Of a stretch of 35,854 bases of DNA, positions 4,520 through 34,913 are shown piece by piece. The DNA lies in contig JAUWOO010000003.1 in NCBI GenBank assembly GCA_030612095.1, forward strand, positions 1-35,854, written 5' to 3'. The position numbers were made by a program, and so were the translations under genes. This DNA comes from Thermoplasmatota archaeon. GTDB lineage: Archaea > Thermoplasmatota > E2 > DHVEG-1. Position 1 is the stretch's first letter. Each line of letters opens with the position of its first letter. A model generated the notes under the pieces. The model made no database searches, was not told the origin of the DNA, and saw only the letters and a program-made list of their open reading frames with translations.

Positions 4520-5176
4520 ATGATTTGTGGTGTGGATGAAGCCGGCCGAGGTCCAGTTGTTGGTCCGTTAGTAATCGCTGGAGTTACCTTTGAAAATGAT
4601 TTGGAATTAATAGAAAATAATGTGCGCGATTCAAAAAAAATTACACCTAAAAGAAGAGAAATACTATCTAAAAGAATAAAAGAATCGGCAGTAAACTATG
4701 AGATAATTCTCATTTCTGCATCAGATATTGACCATATGCGGAAAGTTATGACGCTAAATGAAATAGAAGTGAACGCTTTTAGCAAGATCATAGAAAAACT
4801 AAAACCAGATATTTGCTACGTCGATGCTGCTGATGTAAATAATGAACGATTTGGTAAGAACATTCTATCTAGACTCTCATTCAAACCAGAGATCATATCT
4901 AAGCACAAGGCAGATGATATCTATCCCATAGTTGGAGCCGCTTCTATTTTGGCGAAAACTAGGAGAGATGAAGAAGTTCAGATGATATCGCAGGAATTGA
5001 AAAAGAAACTGGATATGTCCCTTGGTAGCGGCTATCCTGCAGATCCTGTTACGCAGAAATTTCTCAGAAAATGGGTAAAAACGTTTGGAAAGCTGCCACC
5101 CCATACCAGACATTCTTGGAAAACAGCACAAAATTTATTGAAGGAAAGCAAAATCAAAAAGTTAGACGAATTTTAA
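4520..5176 (+). CDS. rnhB: Ribonuclease HII (archaeal type)
   Basis: GVDEAGRGPVVGP, DSKK, HKADD, AASILAK, GSGYPADP. Confidence 0.97.
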   Translation: MICGVDEAGRGPVVGPLVIAGVTFENDLELIENNVRDSKKITPKRREILSKRIKESAVNYEIILISASDIDHMRKVMTLNEIEVNAFSKIIEKLKPDICYVDAADVNNERFGKNILSRLSFKPEIISKHKADDIYPIVGAASILAKTRRDEEVQMISQELKKKLDMSLGSGYPADPVTQKFLRKWVKTFGKLPPHTRHSWKTAQNLLKESKIKKLDEF

Positions 5177-5455
5177 TTTATGTGGCAGATATGCCAGCAT
5201 CCCCTACGGGCTGGCAAGTCCTCCTCATTTATCGTCTTATTAATTCTATAGATGTTGATTTTGATATATATACGTAAAATAAGGGTCAATGAAACTATTC
5301 AATTCGGTTGTTTGGTTTTCAGAAGCTCATAAGATTGTGGTTATTAACATTACATATATTTTAATATATCTTTTTATATGCTTTTACAACTTACTATGCA
5401 GGGATAAAATATACAAAGAAATATGTAAAAATATATACAAATATATCTGTTAGGT

Positions 5456-5854
5456 TTAATCGACCCTTTTAGATAAGCACATAAGACAATTATTTACACT
5501 TGATATTAATTTCTCCGGATCGAGAGGTTTAGACAAGTAATCACGTATATATGACCCAAATCCAATCATCTTTTTATGATTTCTTGTTCCTTTTCCAGTA
5601 ATGATTTCAATTTCTATATTTCTTGTTAATCCCCTGTTAACAATCTTTTTTATCGTATCCCATCCATCCATTTTTGGCATCATGATATCCATAAGTACTA
5701 CTCCTCTGAAGCCTTTTTCCAATTCATTAACACATTTGGCTCCACCATCTACTGTGATTACTTCATAACCTTGACGTTCGAATAGAGTTCTCAAAGAGAA
5801 TAATATATCTTGTTCGTCATCAACAATCATTACCTTTTTATCCATTTGTTTCAC
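5456..5854 (-). CDS. Stand-alone response regulator receiver
   Basis: IVDDE, LMDIMMPKMDG, TG, KP; GTG start preceded by GGAGGT; no output domain. Confidence 0.92.
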   Translation of the reverse strand: MKQMDKKVMIVDDEQDILFSLRTLFERQGYEVITVDGGAKCVNELEKGFRGVVLMDIMMPKMDGWDTIKKIVNRGLTRNIEIEIITGKGTRNHKKMIGFGSYIRDYLSKPLDPEKLISSVNNCLMCLSKRVD

Positions 5855-20135: not shown

Positions 20136-21671
20136 TCAAAGGATATTTTGCTCCAAACTTCCCACTATCCTTTCAACTTCTTTGAGTATTTCACATGATT
20201 TAACAAGTCCTTTCATTGTCGTGTGATCCTTATACAATGGTCTATCAACATCCAAGAATTCAACATGTTTTCTTATAATCTCTTTGGCCTTTGTAACACC
20301 TTTACCGAACTTATAGTCACGGAAATCAAGAGCCTGAGCAGCGGCCATAAATTCAATACCCAAAATACCGTAAGCATTGTCAAGTATCTGAAAATTCTTA
20401 ATGGCCGTATTCATACCCATAGAAACGAAATCCTCCTGATCAGCAGCAGCTGGAATCGACTGAATAGATGCAGGTGCAGAAAGAATACGCTGTTCAACTA
20501 TTTGCATATCTGCAGTATACTGGGAAAGCATCATTCCTGAAAACATTCCTGCACCTTTTGTCAAGAACGCAGGAAGTCCCACACTTAGTGCAGGATTATT
20601 CAGTCTGTTTAATCTTCTTTCAGACATGACACTTACCATCGTAATAGCAACACCAGCCATGTCCATAGGAAGGGAAACAGGGCTTCCTTGGAAGTTAGCA
20701 CCAGATATTTGAATGTCTTCGTCAGGAAAGAAAATGGGATTATCTCCTACACCATTGAGTTCAATTTCAACCTGTGAACGAGCATAATCCAAAGCATCAT
20801 GAGCAGCACCTATTACCTGTGGTGTAGATCTCATTGAATAGGCATCCTGCACCTTGCATTTGATTCGCTCTTCTTTTAGATCGCCACCTTCAACAAGTTT
20901 GCGTATTGCCTCTGCACTTCTAACTGCACCTTTAAAACCACGTACTTCGTGTAGTCTTGCGCTATACGGTTTCATGTTAGCTTTTAATGCCTCGAGTGAC
21001 ATTGCAGCAGCTATTTCAGCCTGTTTTAACCAGTTGTTTGCATCATAAAGAAATAATGCACTCATTGCTGTAAGCACATTAGAACCGTTTATTATTGCAA
21101 GTCCATCTCTTGCCCGTAAGCCAGGAGTAGGAATTCCTGCTTTTTTCATTGCATCCTTTCCGTCAAAAAGTTTACCTTTGTAGTACGCCTGACCTTCACC
21201 CAACATAAGTAGTGCAATCTGGGACATGGGGGCTAAATCGCCGCATGCACCCACTGAACCTTTCTGGCAAACATAGGGAGTCACACCCTTATTCAACATT
21301 TCTATAAGTGTAAGCGTTATTTCAGGGCGACAACCTGAATTGCCATGTGCATGAACGTTGATTTTACCAAGCATTGCTCCCCGCACGTACTCGATAGGAG
21401 CTGGATCACCAATGCCGGCAGCATGATTGTATATAAGATATTTTTGGAATTCTTTAACTTGATCATCAGTTAAAACAACCTCCGAAAATTCACCTATCCC
21501 CGTATTCACACCATACATTATTTCATGTGCATCGATCTTCCTTTCCAGCATTGCCCTGCATGTTTTGATGCGTTTCAACGAATCTGGATGAAGTTTCACT
21601 TTTTCATTGCGTCTTGCTACGTCAACCACTTTCTCAATTGTAAGTCCGGAACCATCTATAACTACGGTCAT
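20136..21671 (-). CDS. Aromatic amino acid ammonia-lyase (HutH/PAL family) with an Ala-Cys-Gly MIO motif
   Basis: YGVNTGIG, GSVGACGDLAPM, GLAIING, QDAYSMR, DNP, GANFQG, QEDFVSMG. Substrate uncertain. Confidence 0.9.
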   Translation of the reverse strand: MTVVIDGSGLTIEKVVDVARRNEKVKLHPDSLKRIKTCRAMLERKIDAHEIMYGVNTGIGEFSEVVLTDDQVKEFQKYLIYNHAAGIGDPAPIEYVRGAMLGKINVHAHGNSGCRPEITLTLIEMLNKGVTPYVCQKGSVGACGDLAPMSQIALLMLGEGQAYYKGKLFDGKDAMKKAGIPTPGLRARDGLAIINGSNVLTAMSALFLYDANNWLKQAEIAAAMSLEALKANMKPYSARLHEVRGFKGAVRSAEAIRKLVEGGDLKEERIKCKVQDAYSMRSTPQVIGAAHDALDYARSQVEIELNGVGDNPIFFPDEDIQISGANFQGSPVSLPMDMAGVAITMVSVMSERRLNRLNNPALSVGLPAFLTKGAGMFSGMMLSQYTADMQIVEQRILSAPASIQSIPAAADQEDFVSMGMNTAIKNFQILDNAYGILGIEFMAAAQALDFRDYKFGKGVTKAKEIIRKHVEFLDVDRPLYKDHTTMKGLVKSCEILKEVERIVGSLEQNIL

Positions 21672-21764: not shown

Positions 21765-22598
21765 TTATCCCTCTTGCACTGGCGAACGCCAATCAAGACC
21801 AGGGGTTCTAATGCCAACTTTTGGAATTAAAGGCGTTCTTCTCTTATGCTGGCTTTTAATTCTCATTTTTTTAACTCGCTCAACGTCAGATTGTTTCACA
21901 CCTGCAATATGTACTATCTCATCAATATTTATCTTCTGTTCTAAACCAGCAAGTATTTTATCCAAATCTTTGTAACTAAGTTGCAGTTCTTTTTCATCAG
22001 TCTGTCCCTTTATCAGACCAGCAGTTGGAGGTTTTGAGACTATTTCATCCGGAATTTTCAAATACCTGGCTAACTCCAAAACCTGGGTCTTATATAGATC
22101 ACCGATTGGCATAATATCAACACCACCATCCCCATACTTTGTAAAGTAACCAACAAGAATCTCTGATTTATTAGAGGTGCCACAAACAAGACTTCCAGCC
22201 ATATTAGCATATTCAAAAAGCAGTATCATCCTTGCTCTTGCCTTAATATTTGCAAGTGCACAATTATTTGGTTTTACAATACACTTACTTTCAATATTTT
22301 GTACAAGGGAGGTAATGTCTCTTTTTTCACATAACAAATCAAATTTTTTAACGAAGAGCCCCTGATGTTTAATATCTACATCTGGCGTAGCATCATCGGG
22401 TAAAAAAACACACTTCGTGTTTTCCTTTCCTAGCACGCCTTTACATAATAAAGCAGTAACTGCCGAATCAATACCACCCGAAAGTCCAATCACCACACTT
22501 TTACATCCGGAGTTTTCAACATGTGTTTTAATAAAATCCTTGATAATAATTGACACTTCTTCTGGATTTATAGATAAATTGATATCCAAACCAATCAC
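21765..22598 (-). CDS. nadE: NH3-dependent NAD+ synthetase
   Basis: GLSGGIDS, NIKARARM, GTSNKSE, GYFTKYGDG, KPPTAGL, QTDE, HKR. Confidence 0.96.
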   Translation of the reverse strand: MIGLDINLSINPEEVSIIIKDFIKTHVENSGCKSVVIGLSGGIDSAVTALLCKGVLGKENTKCVFLPDDATPDVDIKHQGLFVKKFDLLCEKRDITSLVQNIESKCIVKPNNCALANIKARARMILLFEYANMAGSLVCGTSNKSEILVGYFTKYGDGGVDIMPIGDLYKTQVLELARYLKIPDEIVSKPPTAGLIKGQTDEKELQLSYKDLDKILAGLEQKINIDEIVHIAGVKQSDVERVKKMRIKSQHKRRTPLIPKVGIRTPGLDWRSPVQEG

Positions 22599-23170
22599 CC
22601 TTTGCTCAACAATATGTTTTCATTCTTTTTAAGCTCCCTGTATATCGACTCACCATACGAATCTATTGCCACAACTAATGGACCAAATTCTTTTACCACA
22701 AATATCCAGATGGCCTCTGCCATGCCCAGTTCTTCAAGCCAATAAACTGCCCGAACTTCTTGTATGCTATCTGCGGCAAGTGCTCCTGCTCCACCTGTAT
22801 ATGACATATAGACTCCACTATGTTTCTGCAACGTTTTTCTGGTTCTTTCGCCCATGTCTCCTTTTCCAATTATAAGGTTTATACCATATTTTTCTATGAA
22901 TTTATCTTCAAATATTTCCATCCTACCGCTTGTGGTAGGACCAGCAGAAATAACCTTCCAACCATCCTTATTTTTTTTCATTAAAGGTCCACAATGATAG
23001 AGGGCCATAATAGAGGGATCAAATGGAATATCAATCTTATTTTGTTCAAGCATTAAATGGTGGGCTGCATCTCGAGCGGTAAAAACTGTGCCGGAAACAT
23101 ATACAATATCACCAATATGTAATTTTTTTATATCCTCAACGTCAACCGGAATGTCAAAATGATACTCCAA
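22595..23170 (-). CDS. Class I fumarate/tartrate hydratase, beta subunit
   Basis: TARDAAH, YHCGP, GPTTSGRM, IGKG, GGAGAL, LGMAEA, FGPLVVAID. Likely TTG start at 23170 after GGAGGT (ORF track starts at 23194). Confidence 0.9.
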   Translation of the reverse strand: MEYHFDIPVDVEDIKKLHIGDIVYVSGTVFTARDAAHHLMLEQNKIDIPFDPSIMALYHCGPLMKKNKDGWKVISAGPTTSGRMEIFEDKFIEKYGINLIIGKGDMGERTRKTLQKHSGVYMSYTGGAGALAADSIQEVRAVYWLEELGMAEAIWIFVVKEFGPLVVAIDSYGESIYRELKKNENILLSKG

Positions 23171-23171
23171 A

Positions 23172-24032
23172 TTATTCAACCTCCCATGTTCCATCAGAGT
23201 GAATAATCATGTTTGCTCTTCGGTCAGCCCAACACTGAACCACAAGACCAACAGGAAGACTTGCAGGATGCCTAGGTGCCTTCTCAACATGAACATCAAG
23301 AACAGTAGTTTTTCCACCAAGCCCCATCGGACCAATTCCACTTTGATTAATTCTTTTAATTAAATCTTCCTCCATTAAAGCAATTTTTTTATCTTGATGG
23401 CGAATGCCGACTGGTCTAAGAAGAGCAGTTTTTCCAAGCTTCATCGCTAGATCTGCCCCACCCCCAATACCTATTCCAACAACAGTAGGTGGACAAGGAT
23501 TTCCCCCAGCTTTTATCATCTCTTCTACAACAAAATCTTTAACACCTTCTATACCAACACCAGGTTTAAGCATAACAAGCTTACTCATGTTTTCACTGCC
23601 ACCGCCTTTTGGTATTGCCGTGATTATTACATCACTACCATCGACAAAATCCCAAGTTATTGCTGGAATATAATCACCAGTATTGTCTTTATGATTCTTG
23701 TGTGTAAACGGGTCAAACGTGTTAGGACGCAATGGAACTTGTTCGGTGGCAATTTTTACTGCATCTGTAATTTGTTTTTTTAATCTACCCACATATAGAT
23801 AATCAACACCAATTTTTACGAAAAACGTCTGAACGCCTGTATCCTGACACATCGGCCTCATTGTCTTTTTTGCAACATCTATGTTTTTAAGAATATTTTC
23901 TATCTGGATTTTTGCAATTCCCTCTTCGATATCATAGGCATTTTTTAAAGCTTTGACAACATCACTAGGAAGTTCTATCTCTGCTTTTTTGATAAGCTGA
24001 ACTATACCTCCCACTATACTTCCATAATCCAT
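23172..24032 (-). CDS. Class I fumarate/tartrate hydratase, alpha subunit (Fe-S)
   Basis: PMCQDTG, PLRPN, PKGGGSEN, NPCPP, GIGPMGLGG, HPASLPV, QCWA. Confidence 0.92.
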   Translation of the reverse strand: MDYGSIVGGIVQLIKKAEIELPSDVVKALKNAYDIEEGIAKIQIENILKNIDVAKKTMRPMCQDTGVQTFFVKIGVDYLYVGRLKKQITDAVKIATEQVPLRPNTFDPFTHKNHKDNTGDYIPAITWDFVDGSDVIITAIPKGGGSENMSKLVMLKPGVGIEGVKDFVVEEMIKAGGNPCPPTVVGIGIGGGADLAMKLGKTALLRPVGIRHQDKKIALMEEDLIKRINQSGIGPMGLGGKTTVLDVHVEKAPRHPASLPVGLVVQCWADRRANMIIHSDGTWEVE

Positions 24033-24138: not shown

Positions 24139-26103
24139 TTACTGTCTGTTATCCACAAGACTGTCGACAATGGATGGGTCAGATAGAGTACTGATATCAC
24201 CAAGCTTATCGACCTCGCCTTCTGCAATTTTACGCAAGATACGGCGCATGATTTTTCCAGACCGGGTTTTTGGCAAACCTTCAGCATACTGGATTTTGTC
24301 AGGAGAAGCATGAGGGCCTATCTCTGATCTGACCAGTTTTACTAATTCCTTTGTAAGATTTTCATCGATACTCTCACCGGTATTTAAAGTCACATATGCA
24401 TATATTCCCTGACCCTTGATTTCGTGAGGATATCCAACAACTGCTGCCTCTGCAACCTTTGAATGTTTGCCAAGCGCACCTTCTACTTCAGCAGTGCCAA
24501 TTCTATGACCAGAGACGTTCATCACATCATCCACTCTACCAGTAATCCAGTAATAACCATCAGCATCTCTGAGACAACCATCGCCAGTGAAGAAATATCC
24601 AGGATACATGGTGAAATAAGTATCTTTGAACCTTTTGTGATCTCCATATACTGTTCTCATCATTCCTGGCCATGCCGTTTTGATTACAAGGTTACCTGAC
24701 ACATCATTGCCTTCCAGTTCTTTACCATTATCATCCAAAAGGATTGGTTCTATGCCGAAAAACGGAAGTGTTGCAGAACCCGGTTTGGTTGGTGTTGCAC
24801 CTGGAAGTGGCGTGATAAGAATTCCGCCTGTTTCAGTTTGCCACCAGGTATCTACAATAGGACAGCGTTCGCCACCTATAAGTTTGTAGTACCAGTTCCA
24901 TTCCCTAGATTTGATTGGTTCACCAACAGTACCAAGAATCTTAAGTGAGCTAAGGTCATATTTTGTAACCCAGTCATCACCCTCTTTCATGAGAGCTCTA
25001 AGTGCCGTAGGGGCAGTGTAAAAAGTGTTGACTTTGTGTTTTTCACAGATTGCCCAGAATCTACCCCAATCTGGATAGTTTGGAACACCTTCATACATCA
25101 TTGAAATAGCTTTGTTGTTTAGCGGACCATACACAATGTAAGAGTGGCCAGTAATCCACCCGATGTCAGCCGTACACCAATATATGTCTCCTTCGCGATA
25201 GTCAAAGATATACTTGTGAGTAACAGCAGCATATACTAGGTATCCGCCAGTTGTATGCAATACACCCTTTGGTTTTCCTGTCGAACCAGAAGTATAAAGA
25301 ATAAACAGTGGATCCTCGGCATCCATTTCCTCAGGCGGACATTTTGAATCAGCTTGTTCCATCTCTTCATGCCACCAATAGTCTTTGTCAGTCCAGTCGA
25401 CTTTTTCTCCGATGCGCTTTACAACTATTACAGATTCAATTGATGGGCATTCTTTTACTGATTTGTCAGCGGTGACTTTCATGTGAAGTGGCTTTGGTCC
25501 TCTTACTCCAGCATCTTGTGTGATAAGCATCTTACATTCAGAATCGTTAATCCTATCACGAAGCGAATCGGCAGAAAAACCACCAAAAACTATGGAGTGA
25601 ACGGCACCGATACGGGCACAAGCAAGCATAGATATGGCCAATTCAGGAACCATTTGCAAATAGATACAAACTCTATCACCTTTCTCAATGCCTTTTGATT
25701 TAAGGACATTAGCAAACTTCTCTACTTCAGTAAGAAGTTCTGTATATGTAAAGGTTTTTGATTGATCTGGTTCGTTTCCTTCCCATATAATTGCAATATC
25801 GTCTCCATGTCCGTTTTCAATATGTTTATCAAGGCAGTTGTAGGCTACGTTAAGTTTTGCCCCCTCAAACCACTTGATTTCCGCTTTTTTGAAATCATAT
25901 TTACAGACATTGCTCCATTTCTTATACCAACTTACATTCTCCTCAGCCATTTTTGCCCAGAACTCATCGGGATTTTCTATGGATTTTTTATACAGTTCGT
26001 TGTATTCATCCATGCTGCCGATGTAGGCCCTTGAGCTTATAGTCTTGTTAGGTTTAAAAACCTCAACTGTTTCTGTTTCTGCCATACTTTCCAAACTCTC
26101 CAT
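24139..26103 (-). CDS. acs: AMP-forming acetyl-CoA synthetase
   Basis: [51 protein letters not shown]. Start may be at 26085. Confidence 0.97.
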
Positions 26104-26313
26104 TCAGTTTAACTACTTTTTATATTTCACATTTTATATTTTTTAAGAAGAACCTAATTTTGAAGGTCCCCCAAGGATATATTAACCCCTTAGCGGGTTG
26201 CTCGAATAGAGTTTTAGTATATAATATTTTTTGTACGCATTTCCCCGTGTTGAATCCGGAAATTATTCTTCACCAACTATGGTAAAAAAACAAATAGATG
26301 GCGTTCTTCACTT

Positions 26314-27366
26314 TTAAATTTTCAATATTTTTTTTGCTATTGGAGCGAAATCAAAATCCTTTATGATAACTATCCTTTCAAACATATATTTTCTAATAAG
26401 TGGGGTGTATGATATGAAATCATTCTCCTTAAGAAAACGAATCTTGCGCATTTTATCCTCCTTATAGTCCTGATAACCAGGATACGCAGATATCATTATA
26501 ATTTCAAATCCCCTAATGGCAAGAAAGATTGTAGAAGCAGTATCAAGATTACAGATATCCTCTTTGCTAGGTAGTTTACGAGGATTAAATTTGAGGTGAC
26601 AAAATGACAGTATTTCAAAACCTAGTTTATTTAGATTTGGAAGAGCAATATTTCTTAGTAAATTCTCTTCAAAAAAATGTTTTTTCATTCTTGATATAGT
26701 ATGGCGAGATAATCCAACCGTTTCCCCCAATTGTTGAGTAGTATCATTTGGATATTCAACGATTGCAGAATAGACCTTTTTTTCCTTATCAGTTAATTCT
26801 ATATAATCTAGATGATCAAACCAATTCGCATCAGGTTCTATGTTTTCGATGTGATCTAAAGAGAATACTTTTTTTAAAATACGGGAAAAGTCAAAAAACC
26901 TGTTAATGTGACTTGTCTCAAATGGAAATATTACTTCAGTAGGATACTCATTTTCTAAGAGACCGGCTTTACCAAAAGTTTCAGTTCTTATTTCATTTAT
27001 TTTTCCAATATTGGTATAGTTTTTTGATAGGCTGATTGAAAAACCTTTTTCTTGCTCTCCTGCTGAAAAAAAGATTTCTTCAAATACTTCAATTGTTTTT
27101 TTTGTTGTCTTAATTCGCTCTTCTAGTGGTATAACTGGGTTGAACTGAGTATATATCACTGCCAAAAGTTCACACCCCAAATAATTTAACATTGGAACCG
27201 CAAGTTTTCGAAAAAACCCCTGATCAAATAACCTTCGTTTTATAGATGTAAGTGTAGAAAGTTTTACACCCATAATTGATGATAATTCACTATCATTTAA
27301 TCCAGGATATTTAACAAGTCCATAGAGGACTTTTTCCTCGTTTTTTGTTAAAGGCGTTTGCTTCAC
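26314..27366 (-). CDS. Tandem-duplicated Lrp/AsnC-like wHTH transcriptional regulator
   Basis: Two internal repeats: LTKNEEKVL..LVKYP..DSELS...PMLNYLGCELL...FNP and LTDKEKKVY..IVEYP..TQQLG...PNLNKLGFEIL...FNP. Confidence 0.8.
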   Translation of the reverse strand: MKQTPLTKNEEKVLYGLVKYPGLNDSELSSIMGVKLSTLTSIKRRLFDQGFFRKLAVPMLNYLGCELLAVIYTQFNPVIPLEERIKTTKKTIEVFEEIFFSAGEQEKGFSISLSKNYTNIGKINEIRTETFGKAGLLENEYPTEVIFPFETSHINRFFDFSRILKKVFSLDHIENIEPDANWFDHLDYIELTDKEKKVYSAIVEYPNDTTQQLGETVGLSRHTISRMKKHFFEENLLRNIALPNLNKLGFEILSFCHLKFNPRKLPSKEDICNLDTASTIFLAIRGFEIIMISAYPGYQDYKEDKMRKIRFLKENDFISYTPLIRKYMFERIVIIKDFDFAPIAKKILKI

Positions 27367-27515
27367 AATTTCTAAGAATGATATGAGTCAATATATAATT
27401 TTCCCATTTTTCCAAAATAAATCAAATATTTTGTTATAACGCTCGAAATATGACAAAAATTAATCAAAAAAACATTTTGATAATATCAAGATTATTTATT
27501 TGTTTAATTCCGTGC

Positions 27516-27528
27516 AAAAGTTTATTAA
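27516..27528 (+). promoter_or_regulatory. Probable BRE/TATA promoter of the aconitase-ACL-IDH operon
   Basis: Purine run AAAAG followed by TTTATTAA, about 50 nt upstream of the ATG at 27576. Confidence 0.5.
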
Positions 27529-27575
27529 ACGCTTCGAGATACTTCGCAATTATCACCTACAATGAGATGATAAAC

Positions 27576-29525
27576 ATGGGAATGGCAATAACGGAAAAAA
27601 TACTTTCTAAACATGTAACAGAAGGCAAGCCAAAAAAGGGAAGTGAGGTAGGAATAAAAATTGATCAGACCCTTACTCAAGACGCAACAGGTACTATGGC
27701 ATACCTACAATTTGAGGCAATGGGTATTTCTAAGGTCAAAACTGAACTCTCAGTAAGCTATGTTGATCACAACACAGTTCAGATTGGTTTTGAGAACGCT
27801 GATGATCATAAATACCTTCAATCTGTCGCTGAAAAATATGGAATCGTTTACTCAAGAGCAGGTAATGGAATTTGTCATCAAGTACATCTAGAAAGATTTG
27901 GCAAACCTGGAAAGACACTACTTGGGTCTGATTCCCATACACCAACCGGTGGTGGAATAGGGATGATTGCTATTGGCGCGGGCGGTCTTGATGTCGCTGT
28001 GGCAATGGCAGGAGGGGCTTTCTACCTAACATATCCTAAAGTTATAAAGATTAACCTTACAGGAAAACTCAGACCATGGGTAGCAGCAAAAGACATCATT
28101 CTCAAGATTTTAGATATATTTACAACAAAGGGAAACGTCGGTTGCGTTTTTGAATATGGTGGCGAAGGAGTGAAAACCCTCTCAGTTCCCGAAAGAGCAA
28201 CAATAACTAATATGGGAGCAGAATGTGGAGTAACCACATCTGTGTTTCCAAGTGATGAGATAACCAAAGAATTTCTAAAAGCACAAGGTAGAGAAAAGGA
28301 CTGGATTGAACTCAAAGCAGATGATGATGCAGAATATGATAAAGTAGTAGACATCAATCTAAGTGAACTAGAACCACTTGCAGCAACGCCCCATAGTCCA
28401 GGCAACATAAAAACAGTAAGAGAACTAGAAGGAATGGACGTCGATCAAGTCTGTCTCGGAAGTTGTACAAACTCATCATACAAAGATTTGATGACCGTTG
28501 CCCACATTCTAAAGGGCAAGAAAAACAATACAAACGTTAGCTTTGTTGTTGCACCAGGATCAAAACAAGTATTGGAGAATATAATTAAAGATGGGGGATT
28601 TACAGACATTGTTTCTTCAGGTGCAAGAATTGCAGAGTCGGCCTGTGGTTTCTGCATAGGAAACAGTCAATCACCAAAAACAGATGCAGTGTCACTTAGA
28701 ACAAGTAACAGAAATTTCTTAAGTCGCTCGGGAACAAAAAGCGCACAGATCTATCTTGTAAGTCCCGAAACTGCTGCCGCAGCAGTAATAACCGGTAAAT
28801 TTACTGATCCAAGAGATCTTGAAAAAATTGGCATAAAATATCCATCCATCGATATGCCCGCTCAGTTTTACTTAGATGACAGCATGTTCATTTTCCCAAA
28901 GGAAAATTCAGGTAAAGTCAAGATATACCGGGGACCAAACATCGGTGATCCACCAGCAAGTGATCCAATCCCAGATACAATAGCTGGAGAAGTAACAATC
29001 AAAGTAGAAGACAAGATCACCACAGACCACATTATTCCCGCTGGAAGTAAGATGAAGTATAGATCAAACGTTCCAAAATATTCAGAATTTTTATTTGAAG
29101 TTGTCGATCCAACGTTTCATGACCGTGCTGAAAAAATACGCGACAGTGGAAAACACAACATAATTGTTGCTGGACTAAGTTACGGCCAAGGTTCCTCAAG
29201 AGAACACGCAGCATTGTGTCCAATGTACATGGGAGTAAAAGCAGTAATTGCAAAATCTCTTGAGAGAATTCATAAAGCCAATCTCATAAATTTTGGTATA
29301 ATTCCACTAACATTCAAAAACGAAAAAGATTACGATAGTATTGATCAAGCAGATGAACTAGAAATAACAAATATAAAAGAGATTCTTGAAGCAGGAAAAA
29401 CAGTAGTTGTAAGGAATAAGACTAAAGGATTAGAATTCAAGGTTGATTATGACCTTTCCGACAGGCAAAAAATGATTTTGCTTGCGGGAGGGACACTTGC
29501 TTACATGAAAAAGCAGGCAAAATGA
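27576..29525 (+). CDS. Aconitate hydratase
   Basis: QDATG, DHN, GICHQ, GSDSHT, GSCTNS, CGFCIG, NRNF, TTDHI, GSSREHAA. Start trimmed to 27576. Confidence 0.95.
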   Translation: MGMAITEKILSKHVTEGKPKKGSEVGIKIDQTLTQDATGTMAYLQFEAMGISKVKTELSVSYVDHNTVQIGFENADDHKYLQSVAEKYGIVYSRAGNGICHQVHLERFGKPGKTLLGSDSHTPTGGGIGMIAIGAGGLDVAVAMAGGAFYLTYPKVIKINLTGKLRPWVAAKDIILKILDIFTTKGNVGCVFEYGGEGVKTLSVPERATITNMGAECGVTTSVFPSDEITKEFLKAQGREKDWIELKADDDAEYDKVVDINLSELEPLAATPHSPGNIKTVRELEGMDVDQVCLGSCTNSSYKDLMTVAHILKGKKNNTNVSFVVAPGSKQVLENIIKDGGFTDIVSSGARIAESACGFCIGNSQSPKTDAVSLRTSNRNFLSRSGTKSAQIYLVSPETAAAAVITGKFTDPRDLEKIGIKYPSIDMPAQFYLDDSMFIFPKENSGKVKIYRGPNIGDPPASDPIPDTIAGEVTIKVEDKITTDHIIPAGSKMKYRSNVPKYSEFLFEVVDPTFHDRAEKIRDSGKHNIIVAGLSYGQGSSREHAALCPMYMGVKAVIAKSLERIHKANLINFGIIPLTFKNEKDYDSIDQADELEITNIKEILEAGKTVVVRNKTKGLEFKVDYDLSDRQKMILLAGGTLAYMKKQAK

Positions 29526-29545
29526 AAAATGGGAGAATGTAAAGT

Positions 29546-30823
29546 ATGGCACAAAGAGGAGTAAGAGAATTTGACGCTAAAAAAATGCTAGCCACCTACT
29601 GGTCAGAGTATGTGAGCAAAGAGTTCAGTTACCCTGGAAAAGTTGCTCTTGTTGGACCAGAAACTAATATGGATAAACTAGCAAAAGAGGAGCCCTGGCT
29701 AAAAAAGGAAAAACTCGTAATAAAGCCGGATCAACTATTTGGAAAAAGAGGGAAGCACGGCCTAATCAAACTCAATGCATCTTTTGATGAAGCGAAGAAA
29801 TGGATAAAAGAACGCATAAACAAAGACACAAAGGTTGGAAAGGTAACGGGAACGCTTACACATTTTATTATTGAACCATTCACACCCCATGAAGGAGAAT
29901 ATTACATAGCAATCAAAAGCAATCGGGCTGGTGACACCATCTATTTCTCAAATCACGGTGGAGTTGACATAGAGTCGGTCTGGGATACCGTAGCAGAAAT
30001 ACCTGTTGGAATCACTGACGATATTGACAAGATAGATATTGAATCAAAACTGCCAAAAGACACACCAAAAGAAAGTAAAAAAATCATTACAGATTTCATA
30101 CGTGGACTTTTTAGATTTTACGCAGATCTTGGCTATGCATACCTGGAAATTAACCCATTTGCAATAACAGACAACAAAATTGTTCCATTAGATCTTGTAG
30201 CAAGAATTGATGACACTGCGTACTTTGAATGTCAATCTAAATGGGGAGATCTTACGTTTCCAGCACCGTTTGGTAGAAAACTCTCCAAAGAGGAATACTA
30301 TATCAAAGAACTAGATGAAAAAACCGGTGCATCACTTAAGCTCACCCTCCTCAACCCAAAAGGCAATGTATGGACAATGGTTGCAGGCGGTGGTGCCAGC
30401 GTTATTTATGCTGACACAATTGTTGATTTAGGATACAAAGACGACCTTGCAAATTATGGAGAATACAGTGGGAATCCAAACAGAGATTCGACCTACGAAT
30501 ATGCTAAAACAGTCCTTGATCTTATGACAAGAGAAAAAGCTCCAAAGGGAAAACCTAAGTTCCTTATAATTGGAGGAGGAATTGCAAACTTCACAGATAT
30601 TGCAAAAACATTTGCAGGAATCACTATGGCACTCAAAGATTACAAGAAAAAACTTCAAGAAATCAACGTCAAGATATACGTTAGAAGAGGCGGACCAAAC
30701 TATCAAGAGGGATTAAAGATAATGAAAAAACTCGGTGAAGAACTTGGTGTTCCAATAGAAGTATATGGACCTGAAATGCACATGACAAGAATTGTCCCAA
30801 TGGCTCTAGATGGAGGTAATTAA
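29546..30823 (+). CDS. aclB: ATP-citrate lyase, beta (ATP-grasp/citrate-binding) subunit
   Basis: KPDQLFGKRGK, LEINPF, FPAPFGR, GASLKLT, WTMVAGGGASV, LANYGEYSG, GGGIANFT, RRGGPNYQEGL. Confidence 0.95.
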   Translation: MAQRGVREFDAKKMLATYWSEYVSKEFSYPGKVALVGPETNMDKLAKEEPWLKKEKLVIKPDQLFGKRGKHGLIKLNASFDEAKKWIKERINKDTKVGKVTGTLTHFIIEPFTPHEGEYYIAIKSNRAGDTIYFSNHGGVDIESVWDTVAEIPVGITDDIDKIDIESKLPKDTPKESKKIITDFIRGLFRFYADLGYAYLEINPFAITDNKIVPLDLVARIDDTAYFECQSKWGDLTFPAPFGRKLSKEEYYIKELDEKTGASLKLTLLNPKGNVWTMVAGGGASVIYADTIVDLGYKDDLANYGEYSGNPNRDSTYEYAKTVLDLMTREKAPKGKPKFLIIGGGIANFTDIAKTFAGITMALKDYKKKLQEINVKIYVRRGGPNYQEGLKIMKKLGEELGVPIEVYGPEMHMTRIVPMALDGGN

Positions 30824-30824
30824 A

Positions 30825-32681
30825 ATGAAAGAAAGACCAGAATATGTATTATTCGATAAGGATACAAAGGCCATAGTATTTGGATATCAACAGAATGCAA
30901 TCCAACGTATGCTTGATTTTGATTACATATGCAGAAGAAAAGAGCCGTCTGTTACCTGTATTGTAAATCCCACTAGAGAAGGATATCATAAGTGCTTCTG
31001 GGGAACTAAAGATATAATGATCCCCATGTATAAAACAATTAAAGAGGCTGTAGAAAAACACCCAGATGCGGACGTCATGGTAAACTTTGCTTCCTTTAGA
31101 TCTGCATATCAAACGTCAAAAGAAGCTCTTGAAAGCAAAACTATACGAACAGTAGCAATTATTGCCGAAGGAGTTCCAGAAAGAAGATCAAGAGAATTAA
31201 TCAAGATCGCAAACGAAAAGAAAAAATGGATAATCGGCCCTGCGACAGTTGGAGGTATTGCTGGTGGTGGATTCAGAATAGGAAACACCGCAGGAATGCT
31301 TGACAACATTATTGCCTGTCGTCTTCACAGACCTGGCAGTGTTGCATATGTATCGAAATCAGGCGGCCTATCAAATGAGTTGAATAACATCATTGCTCGT
31401 AACACAGATGGTGTCCGTGAAGGGGTTGCAATTGGCGGTGACCGATATCCTGGATCGACATTCATTGAACATATTGAGAGGTACGAAAAAAATCCCGATA
31501 TCAAAATGATAGTACTATTGGGAGAGGTCGGCGGTGTTGATGAATATGTTGTTGTTGACGCATTAAAATCTGGAAAAATAAAGAAACCTCTCGTTGCATG
31601 GTGTATTGGAACATGTTCAAAGGTATTCCCTGCAGAAGTTCAATTTGGTCATGCAGGCGCAAGGGCTGGAGCTGAAAGAGAAACAGCAGATGTAAAAAAT
31701 AAAGCGCTAAAAGAGGCAGGAGCCGTCGTCCCAGACTCCTTTGAAGATTTTGACAAGAAAATCAAAGAAACTTTTGATAAAGAAGTAAAAGCGGGAAGAA
31801 TAAAACCAATGCCCGATATAGAACCTCCAAAGATACCCCTTGATTATAAGGTTGCTATTCGTGATGGTATTGTAAGAAGACCATCTGAATTCATAAGTAC
31901 AATTTCAGATGATCGCGGCGAAGAACTCATGTACTGTGGCGTTCCAATCAGCAAGATATTCGAGGATGATTATGGACTTGGTGGTGTACTTGGTCTACTT
32001 TGGTTCAAGAAGAAACTTCCGAAATGGAGTACTGATTTCCTTGAGATGGTTGTCCTTCTTACGGCAGATCATGGCCCAGCTGTATCTGGAGCACATAATG
32101 CAATTGTTACTGCAAGGGCAGGAAAAGACTTGATTTCATCACTTGTTAGTGGTCTTCTCACCATTGGACCAAGATTTGGAGGGGCAGTGAAAGGGGCCGC
32201 AGATCATTTCACTTCATATTGTGATGCAGGACATCCACCAGAATTCATGGTAAAGGATATGAAAATCAAAAACATCAACATCCAAGGTATCGGCCATAGA
32301 ATCAAATCGGTCACAAATCCAGACAAACGTGTGGAACTTCTGAAAGACTATGCAAAAAAGAATTTCCCGATGACGCCATATCTGGATTATGCTATTGAAG
32401 TGGAAAAAATAACTACTGCAAAGCGAGGTAATCTCATCCTCAATGTTGATGGGTGTATTGGTATCCTTTGTTGCGATATGTTTAGAAGTATAGGTTACAC
32501 AAAAGAAGAAGTAAAAGAATTTGTCTCACTTGGAACACTTAATGCCCTATTTGTCCTAGGGCGCAGTATTGGATTTATGGGGCATATAATGGATCAGAAG
32601 AGACTTAAAACAGGATTATACAGGCATCCGTGGGATGACATTGCGTATATGATGCCAGATAAACCTGAGAAGGTGAAGTAA
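30825..32681 (+). CDS. aclA: ATP-citrate lyase, alpha subunit (CoA-binding, phospho-His, citryl-CoA lyase domain)
   Basis: QRMLDFD, NFASFRSA, IIGPATVGG, SKSGG.SNEL, QFGHAGA (catalytic His), ADHGPAVSGAHN, GIGHRIKS, LNVDG, YRHPWDDI. Confidence 0.95.
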   Translation: MKERPEYVLFDKDTKAIVFGYQQNAIQRMLDFDYICRRKEPSVTCIVNPTREGYHKCFWGTKDIMIPMYKTIKEAVEKHPDADVMVNFASFRSAYQTSKEALESKTIRTVAIIAEGVPERRSRELIKIANEKKKWIIGPATVGGIAGGGFRIGNTAGMLDNIIACRLHRPGSVAYVSKSGGLSNELNNIIARNTDGVREGVAIGGDRYPGSTFIEHIERYEKNPDIKMIVLLGEVGGVDEYVVVDALKSGKIKKPLVAWCIGTCSKVFPAEVQFGHAGARAGAERETADVKNKALKEAGAVVPDSFEDFDKKIKETFDKEVKAGRIKPMPDIEPPKIPLDYKVAIRDGIVRRPSEFISTISDDRGEELMYCGVPISKIFEDDYGLGGVLGLLWFKKKLPKWSTDFLEMVVLLTADHGPAVSGAHNAIVTARAGKDLISSLVSGLLTIGPRFGGAVKGAADHFTSYCDAGHPPEFMVKDMKIKNINIQGIGHRIKSVTNPDKRVELLKDYAKKNFPMTPYLDYAIEVEKITTAKRGNLILNVDGCIGILCCDMFRSIGYTKEEVKEFVSLGTLNALFVLGRSIGFMGHIMDQKRLKTGLYRHPWDDIAYMMPDKPEKVK

Positions 32682-34913
32682 TTGGATGGAAAAGGAAAGA
32701 TAATTTATACAAAGGTTGATGAAGCGCCAGCTTTAGCAACTTATTCTTTTCTACCTATTATAAAAAGGTTCACAGAAGTTGGAGAGATAACAGTTGAAAC
32801 AAGAGATATTTCACTAGCAGGAAGAATTGTTGCAAAATTTCCTGAAAATCTTGCAAAGGAACAAAGGATATCAGATGATTTAGCAGAACTTGGCGATCTG
32901 GTTAAAAAACCAGAAGCAAATATCATCAAACTACCATGTATCAGCGCATCACTACCTCAATTGAAAGCAGCAATAAAAGAATTACAAGACCATGGCTATA
33001 ATCTTTTAGATTATCCAGAGGATCCAAAAAATGATAAAGAAAAAGAAATAAAAGCCAGATATGACAAGATTAAAGGAAGCGCGGTAAACCCTGTTTTAAG
33101 AGAAGGAAACTCAGATCGAAGAGTCCCCGGACCTGTAAAAAACTATGCAAAACAAAACCCACATCCAATGGGTGAATGGACCGCTGATTCAAAATCACAT
33201 GTTACACATATGAAAAGTAATGATCTTTGTTCAAATGAGAAATCTACAACAATTACAAAAGAAACAGCAGGAGATGCAAAAATTGAGTTTATAGGTCAAG
33301 ATGGAACTACTAAAGTTTTAAAGGAAAAACTTGCACTACTTGATGGTGAAATAATTGATGCAACAGTTATGAACAAAAATGCGCTACGTGCATTTCTTGA
33401 AGAACAAGTCGAAGATGCAAAAAAGAAAGATGTTTTGTTTTCTGTTCATTTGAAAGCTACAATGATGAAAGTATCAGACCCGATTATTTTTGGTCATGTA
33501 GTTTCTGTTTTCTTCAAAGATGTATTTGAAAAACATACATCTGTTTTTAAAGAAATAGGTGTCAACCCTAACAATGGACTAGGTGACCTTTATGCAAAAA
33601 TCAAAACACTTCCGGATGATGAAAGAAAAGAAATCGAATCTGACATACAAGCATGTTATGAAAATAGACCTAAACTTGCGATGGTGAACTCTGATAAGGG
33701 AATAACAAATCTACATGTCCCAAGTGATGTAATAATTGATGCATCACTGCCTGCTGCAATCCGAAACTCTGGTCGAATGTGGGGGGCCGATGGCAAGCTT
33801 CATGATACAAAATTTGTGATACCAGACAGCAGTTATGCTGGGGTGTATAAGGAAGTAATTGAGTTTTGTAAAAAAAATGGAGCATTTGACCCAACAACAA
33901 TGGGAACTGTTCCAAATGTTGGTCTTATGGCACAAAAAGCCGAAGAATATGGATCTCATGATAAGACATTTCAAATCCCCGGTGATGGAAAAGTTCGTGT
34001 AGTTTCAGCATCAGGAGAAATAATGATTGAACACAATGTTGAAGAAGGTGATATCTGGCGTATGTGCCAGGTAAAAAACTTACCTATTCAAGACTGGGTT
34101 AAACTAGCGGTTAACAGAGCAAAAGCAACAGGTTCACCTGCTGTTTTCTGGCTTGATAAAAACCGAGCTCATGATGCACAGTTGATAAATAAAGTTAACC
34201 ACTATCTTAAAGATCATGATACAAAAGATCTCAAAATCCATACAATGACGCCAGTAGAAGCAACACGTTTCTCATGCAAACGTATGAAAGAAGGTAAAGA
34301 CGCCATTTCAGTAACTGGAAACGTACTGCGTGATTATCTAACAGACCTGTTTCCGATTCTTGAAGTTGGAACAAGTGCTAAGATGCTATCAATAGTGCCG
34401 CTCATGAATGGTGGAGGACTTTATGAAACAGGAGCAGGCGGATCAGCACCTAAACATGTTCAACAATTCCGACAAGAAGGTCATCTAAGATGGGATTCAC
34501 TTGGAGAGTTTCTAGCTCTTGCAGTATCATTAGAACATCTAAGTAATACAACCAATAATAAAAAAGCAAAAATACTGGGAGAAACACTTGATCAAGCAAC
34601 CGCTAAATTTTTGATAAACAACAAATCTCCATCTCGAAAGGTTAATGAGTTGGATAACAGGGGAAGTCATTTCTATCTAACATTATACTGGGCACAAGCA
34701 TTAGCTGATCAGACAAAAGATGTAGATCTTCAAAGTCGTTTTGCAAAACTTGCACAAGAACTTGCAGATAACGAAACTAAGATCCTTGATGAGTTGATTG
34801 TAGCACAAGGTAAGTCTGTTGATATTGGTGGTTACTACAAACCAAATGATGAACTAGCGACTGAAATAATGCGTCCAAGCGAAACTTTCAATGCAGCATT
34901 AAAAGCATTGTAA
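32682..34913 (+). CDS. icd: Monomeric NADP-dependent isocitrate dehydrogenase
   Basis: [76 protein letters not shown] start abuts the aclA stop, with an AGGTGA SD. Confidence 0.96.

Follow-up and report, generated by a model that had tools for sequence, protein, structure and literature searches.

Gene organization of the locus

The 35,854-nucleotide contig JAUWOO010000003.1 of a Thermoplasmatota archaeon (assembly GCA_030612095.1), here called the window, carries on its forward strand four consecutive genes at positions 27576-34913. They encode aconitase (acn), the beta and alpha subunits of ATP-citrate lyase (ACL; aclB and aclA), and a monomeric NADP-isocitrate dehydrogenase (IDH; icd). In the genome that holds the window, this operon is a stand-alone link between acetyl-CoA plus oxaloacetate on one side and 2-oxoglutarate on the other, outside any reductive tricarboxylic acid (TCA) cycle. 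The window is contig C25 of that genome, G000, a 1.52-Mb assembly of 141 contigs with 36.6% G+C. The assembly is 84% complete, and all gene absences given below for G000 are read from it. Whole genomes carry G-numbers and loci carry L-numbers, among them the 35 loci related to the window that formed the comparison set.

The first gene, acn (27576-29525), encodes an aconitate hydratase of the PRK07229 type with 649 amino acids from its likely start (NF005558, 962 bits against a cut-off of 612). The longest frame opens at 27450, but the family model and the relatives align only from residue 43, so that ATG 27576 is the likely start and 209 nt separate acn from the divergent regulator gene. The aclB gene (29546-30823) starts with ATG 29546, 20 nt past the acn stop, and aclA (30825-32681) with ATG 30825, 1 nt past the aclB stop and with GGAGGT upstream. 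The icd gene (32682-34913) opens with TTG 32682 immediately after the aclA stop. An earlier note on this DNA, made from the letters only, had described a tight operon with gaps of 20, 1, and 0 nt, and these values are correct with the likely starts.

The genes opposite the operon lie on the reverse strand. Closest is a gene for a 350-residue winged helix-turn-helix (wHTH) regulator with two tandem winged-helix modules (26314-27366, GTG start at 27366; Pfam TrmB and MarR). It is followed by acs for an AMP-forming acetyl-CoA synthetase (24139-26103; TIGR02188, 1005 bits, cut-off 725) and by the two subunit genes of a class I, Fe-S fumarate hydratase. The alpha subunit gene occupies 23172-24032 (Pfam Fumerase, E 2.4e-97; NF004885, 353 bits, cut-off 276) and keeps the same position in L009 and L043. 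The beta subunit gene occupies 22595-23194 (Pfam Fumerase_C, E 3.5e-44; NCBIfam TIGR00723, 198 bits, cut-off 145). The open reading frame list and two profile libraries bear out all genes that had been named for this locus, and the six from acs to icd are intact.

DNA nearly identical to the window was recovered in 20 cold-seep and marine-sediment runs belonging to 7 studies, and the window may itself stem from one of these. A 4741-nt contig from another study spans 24419-29159 with 8 differences, and a second independent contig of 2416 nt spans 26069-28495. Because these contigs of two other studies both bridge acs, the regulator gene, and acn, the gene arrangement is not an assembly artefact. 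The named relatives of the window AclB come from uncultured Thermoplasmatales and Thermoplasmata metagenome-assembled genomes (MAGs).

Enzymes of the operon

AclB combines an ATP-grasp and a citrate-binding domain (Pfam Citrate_bind, PF16114, E 3.8e-88; Citrate_synth_N, PF24948, E 3.2e-85), aligns over residues 1-422 with PDB 6hxi_A at 573 bits, and is 89% identical to the L009 copy. AclA contains CoA_binding (PF02629) and Ligase_CoA (PF00549) domains and a C-terminal Citrate_synt domain (PF00285) over residues 404-599. It scores 854 bits against the Methanosaeta concilii chains 6hxi_B and 6znw_B, about 827 bits against human ACLY, and just 431 bits against 6hxj_B, a chain that we take to be from Chlorobium limicola. 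The FGHAGA motif of AclA aligns with the same motif in 6hxi_B, and its His is presumably the phosphorylated residue. In the lyase domain, the Asp of the NVDGC segment falls where the 6znw_B variant has Ala. A complete two-subunit ACL had been claimed for this locus, and AclA and AclB indeed have all its domains, along with the FGHAGA motif and the Asp of the lyase domain. Judged by these alignments, AclAB is a genuine ATP-citrate lyase of the archaeal/eukaryotic type.

The monomeric IDH matches PF03971 at 1321.5 bits and TIGR00178 at 1320.6 bits, the latter over residues 4-743 and well above the cut-off of 950, and it aligns with PDB 1itw_A at 1177 bits. The best solved relative of the aconitase is mitochondrial aconitase (323 bits), and the protein is 80-86% identical to its relatives.

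Citrate synthase and the reductive-cycle enzymes

No citrate synthase was found in G000. The Si-type family PF00285 gives only AclA and a 263-residue citryl-CoA lyase (CCL), and the HMGL-like family, to which a Re-citrate synthase would belong, yields only PycB in both G000 and G002. This PycB is flanked in G000 by the biotin carboxylase subunit PycA. On the closed sister chromosome G001, the only members of the citrate synthase family are two AclA copies. We also surveyed 60 genomes of the same order, comprising 50 of the Thermoplasmatota family of the window and 10 of two other families, and in the family survey the Citrate_synt profile matches were sorted by hand through frame length into AclA-like, stand-alone size, and small CCL. 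By this sorting, no frame as long as a stand-alone citrate synthase occurs in any of the 50 family genomes sampled. The earlier note had offered as its model (a) that ACL replaces citrate synthase, a proposal that a citrate synthase would have undermined, and with neither a Si-type nor a Re-family enzyme in G000 it is not refuted.

Most other enzymes of a reductive cycle are also missing from G000. For 2-oxoglutarate:ferredoxin oxidoreductase (KOR), POR_N finds only porA and iorA, and KorA, KorB, and KorG of G002 have no ortholog in tblastn searches, where the best matches are 26% and 33% identical. For fumarate reductase, PF00890 gives short N-terminal FAD-motif matches in G000 and full-length ones in G001-G003, and TfrA of G002 has no match in G000. 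The succinyl-CoA synthetase profile PF08442 finds only AclB, the SucC of G002 has no tblastn match, and its SucD matches only AclA at 30% identity. CdhC, the marker searched for the Wood-Ljungdahl pathway (CODH/ACS), was found in 0 of 7 genomes. Malate dehydrogenase (MDH) of the Ldh_1_C type gave no match in any of 3 genomes, one of them the closed G001, and a search of G000 and 20 relatives for the Ldh_2 type gave none in G000 or its genus; these negatives cover the Ldh_1 and Ldh_2 families, and a non-orthologous enzyme is possible. The two-subunit fumarase is nonetheless present in G000, G001, and G002, where neither MDH type was found.

ACL, aconitase, IDH, fumarase, pyruvate synthase, and an anaplerotic carboxylase are all encoded in G000. 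Pyruvate synthase (pyruvate:ferredoxin oxidoreductase, POR) is the four-subunit porCDAB type, found together with iorA, and the genome keeps the vhuAG genes. Its gene set further includes IOR, AOR, aminotransferases, hutH, hutU, ADP-forming acyl-CoA synthetases, and an AksF-like Iso_dh protein. NADP-malic enzyme occurs in G000 and G002 and not in G001. Neither G000 nor the family genomes searched gave a match to phosphoenolpyruvate carboxykinase (PEPCK) of the GTP or ATP type, and glutamate synthase (GOGAT) gives only weak partial matches in the clade. Glutamate dehydrogenase (GDH) has no match in the G000 assembly and 2-4 matches in relatives. We dropped this absence as evidence because a 12 kb syntenic region of G005 is unassembled in G000, which makes absence and assembly gap indistinguishable (G005 and G013 are equated with G002 and G001, respectively).

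The earlier note had pointed to the absence of kor, frd, and por genes from the window. KOR and the fumarate reductase flavoprotein were not found anywhere in the genome, and POR is present elsewhere in it. Because the other reverse-cycle enzymes were not found, the operon is not evidence of autotrophy in G000. The earlier advice that acl should not be read as proof of carbon fixation, with a non-autotrophic role favoured, agrees with the failure to find KOR, fumarate reductase, SucCD, MDH, and CdhC. The note had also held that a full cycle would fall if fumarate reductase or 2-oxoglutarate synthase were absent; neither was found in G000, which counts against such a cycle.

Loss of the kor-tfr-suc cluster

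In G002, the closest relative (AclB 89% identical), a 13-kb cluster has vhuG on one side and an aspartate aminotransferase gene on the other. It contains genes for an hdrB/SdhE-like protein, a small ferredoxin, an hdrA2-like protein, korG, korB, korA, a tfrA-like protein, an Fe-S protein, a homolog of the window regulator, sucC, and sucD. The closed G001 chromosome has the same cluster, also beside vhuG. On contig C130 of G000, the tblastn match of the aminotransferase ends at 807 and that of vhuG begins at 1044, with no cluster between them. When all cluster proteins were searched by tblastn, no ortholog was found anywhere in the G000 assembly. Because both flanks sit inside one contig and the assembly has no cluster orthologs, the absence is a real deletion at a conserved site and not a contig gap, with a copy in the missing 16% of G000 formally possible.

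The lack of these genes is not confined to this genome. SucC was also not found in G006, which belongs to the same genus as G000 and is 89% complete. Among the AclA-positive family genomes, 12 of 42 have a SucC-type gene and 21 of 42 a KorA-like gene. More of these genomes have the cassette than the cycle, and G000 is not an oddity. Since G000 and most relatives keep the cassette without the rest of the cycle, the cassette has a function of its own.

Conservation and spread of the cassette

The operon arrangement is conserved well beyond chance. In 15 of the 35 related loci, acn stands directly before aclB, and L033, a Micrarchaeota record, is a 16th with a 1.3-kb gap. The 15 loci include Bathyarchaeia, WOR-3, and Chloroflexota, and four of them have icd after aclA. 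Within the family of the window, AclA-like frames occur in 42 of the 50 sampled genomes, so the earlier view that ACL is uncommon in archaea does not hold for this family. Monomeric IDH was found in 24 of the 50 and in 0 of the 10 genomes of the two other families, and in 22 of these 24, representing 13 genera, icd is the immediate downstream neighbour of aclA within one contig. The acs gene is beside the cassette in G000, G010, G007, L009, and L043, and in the last two it is 50% identical to that of the window.

The cassette may have crossed between domains. In a quick, unrooted tree of 22 AclA sequences, the window groups with L009 and L010 and then with L011-L013. A Chloroflexota sequence is sister to this group (100% SH-aLRT), and a WOR-3 sequence is sister to another clade of Thermoplasmatota. 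The comparison across domains also took in L016 and L017 (WOR-3) and L015 (Bathyarchaeia). The acn, aclB, and aclA products of L018 and L019 (Chloroflexota/Anaerolineae) are 73-77% identical to those of the window and thus nearer to them than some Thermoplasmatota copies, which are 57-66% identical. These identities and the small unrooted tree would fit inter-domain transfer of the whole cassette.

Some copies depart from the four-gene form. G001 carries two acn-aclB-aclA-icd copies, and the icd of the second (L013; G013:C1:1178316-1179875) is broken by TAA and covers only model positions 1-518. In L010, where AclB is 90% identical, aclA is followed after about 940 nt (4654-5597, with no icd match) by DUF167 and Toprim genes. 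It appears from L010 that icd can be lost from the cassette.

The histidine ammonia-lyase gene (hutH) of the window lies at 20136-21671, 6 kb upstream of the operon, and in G001 the stretch of about 3.5 kb before the acn of one copy includes both hutH and hutU (L011, 3-2514). This glutamate-yielding histidine pathway is recurrently close to the cassette in the window and G001.

Direction of flux through the operon

The ACL reaction is close to equilibrium, and either direction has to be considered. We hypothesized that the lyase serves as an ATP-conserving citrate synthase that feeds acetate carbon to 2-oxoglutarate, and we regard this as the most likely direction, with about an even chance. 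In this scheme the operon would act as one unit and a self-contained, near-equilibrium link of three steps. The neighbouring AMP-forming Acs would activate acetate, and PycAB would carboxylate pyruvate, available through POR, to oxaloacetate. ACL would then run in the citrate-forming direction with one ATP recovered, and aconitase and NADP-IDH would draw the citrate off towards 2-oxoglutarate. The lyase would in this way substitute for the citrate synthase that was not found in the family. The scheme is supported by the lack of another citrate synthase, by acs as a conserved neighbour in at least five genomes, and by PycA/PycB and porCDAB, which can supply oxaloacetate. The near-equilibrium of the ACL reaction and the precedent reported for Desulfobacter postgatei speak for it as well.

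Several points weigh against citrate formation. The normal cellular ATP/ADP ratio favours cleavage, and the synthetic direction needs high acetyl-CoA and oxaloacetate and very low citrate. Sequence alone cannot set the direction or choose between model (a) and model (b) of the earlier note, the latter being reductive operation. The organism looks like a peptide fermenter, for which glutamate should be plentiful and 2-oxoglutarate synthesis hardly necessary. With no GOGAT found in the clade and no GDH in the assembly, transaminases would have to convert 2-oxoglutarate to glutamate. Elsewhere in G000, a CitF and citryl-CoA lyase pair would also handle citrate, and the genome is only 84% complete.

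In a possible, though rather unlikely, alternative, the operon works as a reductive catabolic, electron-sinking shunt. Glutamate, glutamine, and histidine from peptides would be converted to 2-oxoglutarate and further to acetyl-CoA and oxaloacetate. NADP-IDH would carboxylate, aconitase would isomerise, and ACL would cleave citrate at the cost of one ATP. The acetyl-CoA would give acetate and ATP through the ADP-forming synthetases, and the oxaloacetate would go to aspartate or pyruvate. KOR, the usual archaeal route of 2-oxoglutarate breakdown, is missing in G000, and 21 of the 42 AclA-positive relatives have no KorA-like gene, both of which argue for such a shunt. So do hutH near the window operon, hutH and hutU directly upstream of one acl copy in G001, hutU in G000, the ADP-forming acyl-CoA synthetases, and the peptide-fermenter gene set as a whole. 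In G002, another open reading frame, of 230 residues and with a weak match to the Lrp/AsnC ligand-binding domain (E 7e-7), takes the place before acn, which also points this way. Cleavage is the thermodynamically easier direction. The eukaryotic enzymes of the M. concilii/human type cleave citrate, and the window ACL is of this type by its scores (854 and 827 bits against 431 for 6hxj_B). However, the conserved AMP-forming acs neighbour would not be needed if acetyl-CoA were the product, and pyruvate carboxylase would in part duplicate an ACL that supplied oxaloacetate. There is also no GDH in the assembly, though its syntenic region is wholly unassembled, and no PEPCK of either type was found that would take oxaloacetate to gluconeogenesis.

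More speculatively, in cassette-bearing Thermoplasmatota without 2-oxoglutarate oxidoreductase the operon may work in reverse and form an undescribed fermentation route for glutamate and histidine, a suggestion that we regard as doubtful. Glutamate may pass through 2-oxoglutarate to isocitrate by NADPH-dependent carboxylation, then to citrate, and by ATP-dependent cleavage to acetyl-CoA and oxaloacetate, ending in two acetate. If true, the route would by our tally net ATP and use one pair of reducing equivalents, the need for H2 release would be half that of the usual KOR route, and the single-copy wHTH regulator would switch the module.

It is improbable that citrate is imported or otherwise made and then split two ways, with ACL giving acetyl-CoA and oxaloacetate, aconitase and IDH giving 2-oxoglutarate, and CitF with CCL providing a second, ATP-free cleavage. 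This reading draws on contig C116 of G000 (L006, 11132-15158, minus strand), where a CitF-type citrate CoA-transferase gene (503 bits, cut-off 501) stands directly before that of the 263-residue CCL. CitF is cut by the contig end, and a 587-residue fused LeuC/LeuD-like aconitase-family protein follows CCL. The pair is also adjacent in the closed G008 (L096, 6566-8828), and the small CCL is present in 39 of the 50 family genomes. Its gene content suggests that the pair may be a second citrate-handling system, perhaps a citrate lyase without acyl carrier protein. However, no citrate transporter was seen beside either cluster, and none was searched for. Free citrate is no obvious substrate in cold-seep sediment, and acn before the acl genes with icd after them describes a linear three-step path rather than a branch point. 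A limited literature search gave nothing relevant on a pair of CitF and a citrate-synthase-type citryl-CoA lyase.

Seven of the 50 family genomes (G009, G037, G045, G051, G057, G065, and G070) lack the small CCL and have a full-length citrate-synthase-like domain in a frame of about 718 residues (841 in G037). About 1.8-2.3 kb away on the same contig, they encode a 427-444-residue ATP-grasp_2 protein whose scores fall between those of SucC and AclB. This pair looks like a second lyase of the citryl-CoA synthetase/lyase type, which would be additional to AclAB.

A complete H2-driven reductive TCA cycle with autotrophy, its missing genes lying in the unassembled 16%, is highly improbable and the least likely reading for G000: G001 and G002 do carry korGBA, tfrAB, sucCD, and Hdr-like genes beside Mvh/Vhu hydrogenase genes, G000 retains vhuAG, POR, and PycAB, the available text of one paper reads the same two-cluster layout as an H2-driven reductive cycle in Ca. 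Celaenobacter (PMC8542988), and the available parts of two others report the potential in Thermoplasmatota MAGs (PMC9802188, PMC11287216), but the cluster gap lies inside a contig at a conserved site and not at a contig end, no cluster-protein ortholog was found anywhere in G000 by tblastn, G006 also has no SucC, neither MDH family was found (not even the closed G001 has the Ldh_1 type), and 30 of the 42 AclA-positive relatives are without SucC.

Comparison with known systems

The ACL of Methanosaeta (Methanothrix) concilii (6HXI/6ZNW) is like the window enzyme in its two subunits, domain order, FGHAGA motif, and lyase-domain Asp. Its host is an acetoclastic methanogen, whereas the host here is a Thermoplasmatota fermenter, and the acl genes of the window share one operon with acn on one side and a monomeric icd on the other. 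The Methanotrichaceae locus L027 has no more than a distant aconitase-family gene (34% identical) after aclA. Desulfobacter postgatei reportedly uses ACL for citrate synthesis with a gain of ATP. A citrate-forming ACL that conserves ATP in an acetate-using anaerobe would parallel the direction favoured here. D. postgatei is said to have a complete oxidative cycle and sulfate reduction, whereas G000 has only the branch to 2-oxoglutarate.

According to the available text of Williams et al. (2021; PMC8542988), Ca. Celaenobacter (Cloacimonadota) has an ACL-aconitase-IDH cluster and a separate TFR-OGOR-fumarase-SCS-Mvh-Hdr cluster. As described there, the cassette is common to both organisms, and the second cluster matches the one beside the hydrogenase genes in G001 and G002. 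In contrast, G000 has lost the second cluster and has a divergent wHTH regulator and acs, and on that comparison the H2-driven autotrophy reading does not suit G000.

Garritano et al. (2022; PMC9802188), in the portions at hand, describe potential for the reductive cycle in Thermoplasmatota MAGs, and a Great Salt Lake Thermoprofundales operational taxonomic unit is called an autotroph on AclA in the available text of another study (PMC11287216). As far as these texts extend, the organisms share with G000 the phylum, ACL, and hydrogenases. They were called autotrophs from ACL, carboxylases, and fumarate reductase, whereas KOR, fumarate reductase, and succinyl-CoA synthetase were not found in G000. 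In the accessible part of an earlier study, no aclAB was found in eight MBG-D MAGs (PMC6461988). No paper on ACL replacing citrate synthase in Thermoplasmatota appeared in the literature searched, with supplements, which may hold per-MAG gene tables, outside it. The cassette itself is already known. What is new is the loss of the partner cluster with the cassette kept, the lack of a citrate synthase across the sampled family, and a regulator that tracks TCA genes.

ACL is widely used as a marker of autotrophy for uncultured microbes, including Thermoplasmatota, as the available text of two studies illustrates (PMC11287216, PMC9802188). G000 represents a natural knock-out in this respect: a sister species has the full reverse-cycle gene set, and G000 is without kor-tfr-suc-hdr and has the lyase cassette intact. 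Dark carbon fixation in sediments may thus be overestimated when marker genes are used to gauge it. The locus also raises the question of whether an archaeal family can live without citrate synthase by running ACL in reverse.

The regulator and the divergent intergenic region

The wHTH protein is likely the regulator of the acs/acl module, judging from its position; acs and the operon would be its targets and would be co-regulated. Pfam recognises TrmB at residues 189-227 (E 1.1e-9) and MarR at residues 6-54 (E 5.6e-7), both matches at the level of the helix-turn-helix. The NCBIfam library gives no match, and an effector domain of the TrmB-type C-terminal, sugar-binding kind was not recognised. 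The protein is an internal duplication, with residues 2-170 aligning at about 25% to the DNA for the second half of the G003 and G004 homologs. The regulator family is uncharacterised, and its Atlas clusters are dominated by Thermoplasmatota.

Whole-genome searches give one match each in G000-G004, G007, G008, G010, and G025, indicating a single-copy gene, and no match in G006. The gene is divergent from acn in G010, G007, and G025 (60-67% identical), as in G000, and no SucC-type gene was found in these three genomes. In G010 and G007, acs follows the regulator gene as in the window (81% and 51% identical, respectively). In G001, G002, and G008, which have sucCD, the regulator gene lies between tfrAB and sucCD and its product is 50-53% identical to the window protein. 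A tblastn search of loci L009-L043 gave no match, and whole-genome searches place the single copy of those genomes beside sucCD. Because its position is always beside TCA genes, the protein is a candidate for a dedicated TCA regulator in archaea.

The intergenic region between the regulator gene and acn (27367-27575) contains two blocks that are invariant or nearly so in a four-genus alignment. One holds the TATA-like element TTTATTAAA at 27521-27529, 47 nt before the acn ATG. The other, at 27391-27418, holds a TATA-like element 25 nt before the regulator GTG. The two blocks are probably two divergent promoters. An operator search by exact inverted repeats gave only short AT-rich palindromes, such as TTGATA-A-TATCAA in the window, and no site was shared between the acn-side and suc-side intergenic regions of the regulator. 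The acn upstream region is conserved among L009, L011-L013, and L043, yet it is unlike that of the window. On the other side of the regulator gene, the gap to acs (26167-26284) shows several small insertions and deletions between the strains of different studies, and the flanking genes show substitutions only.

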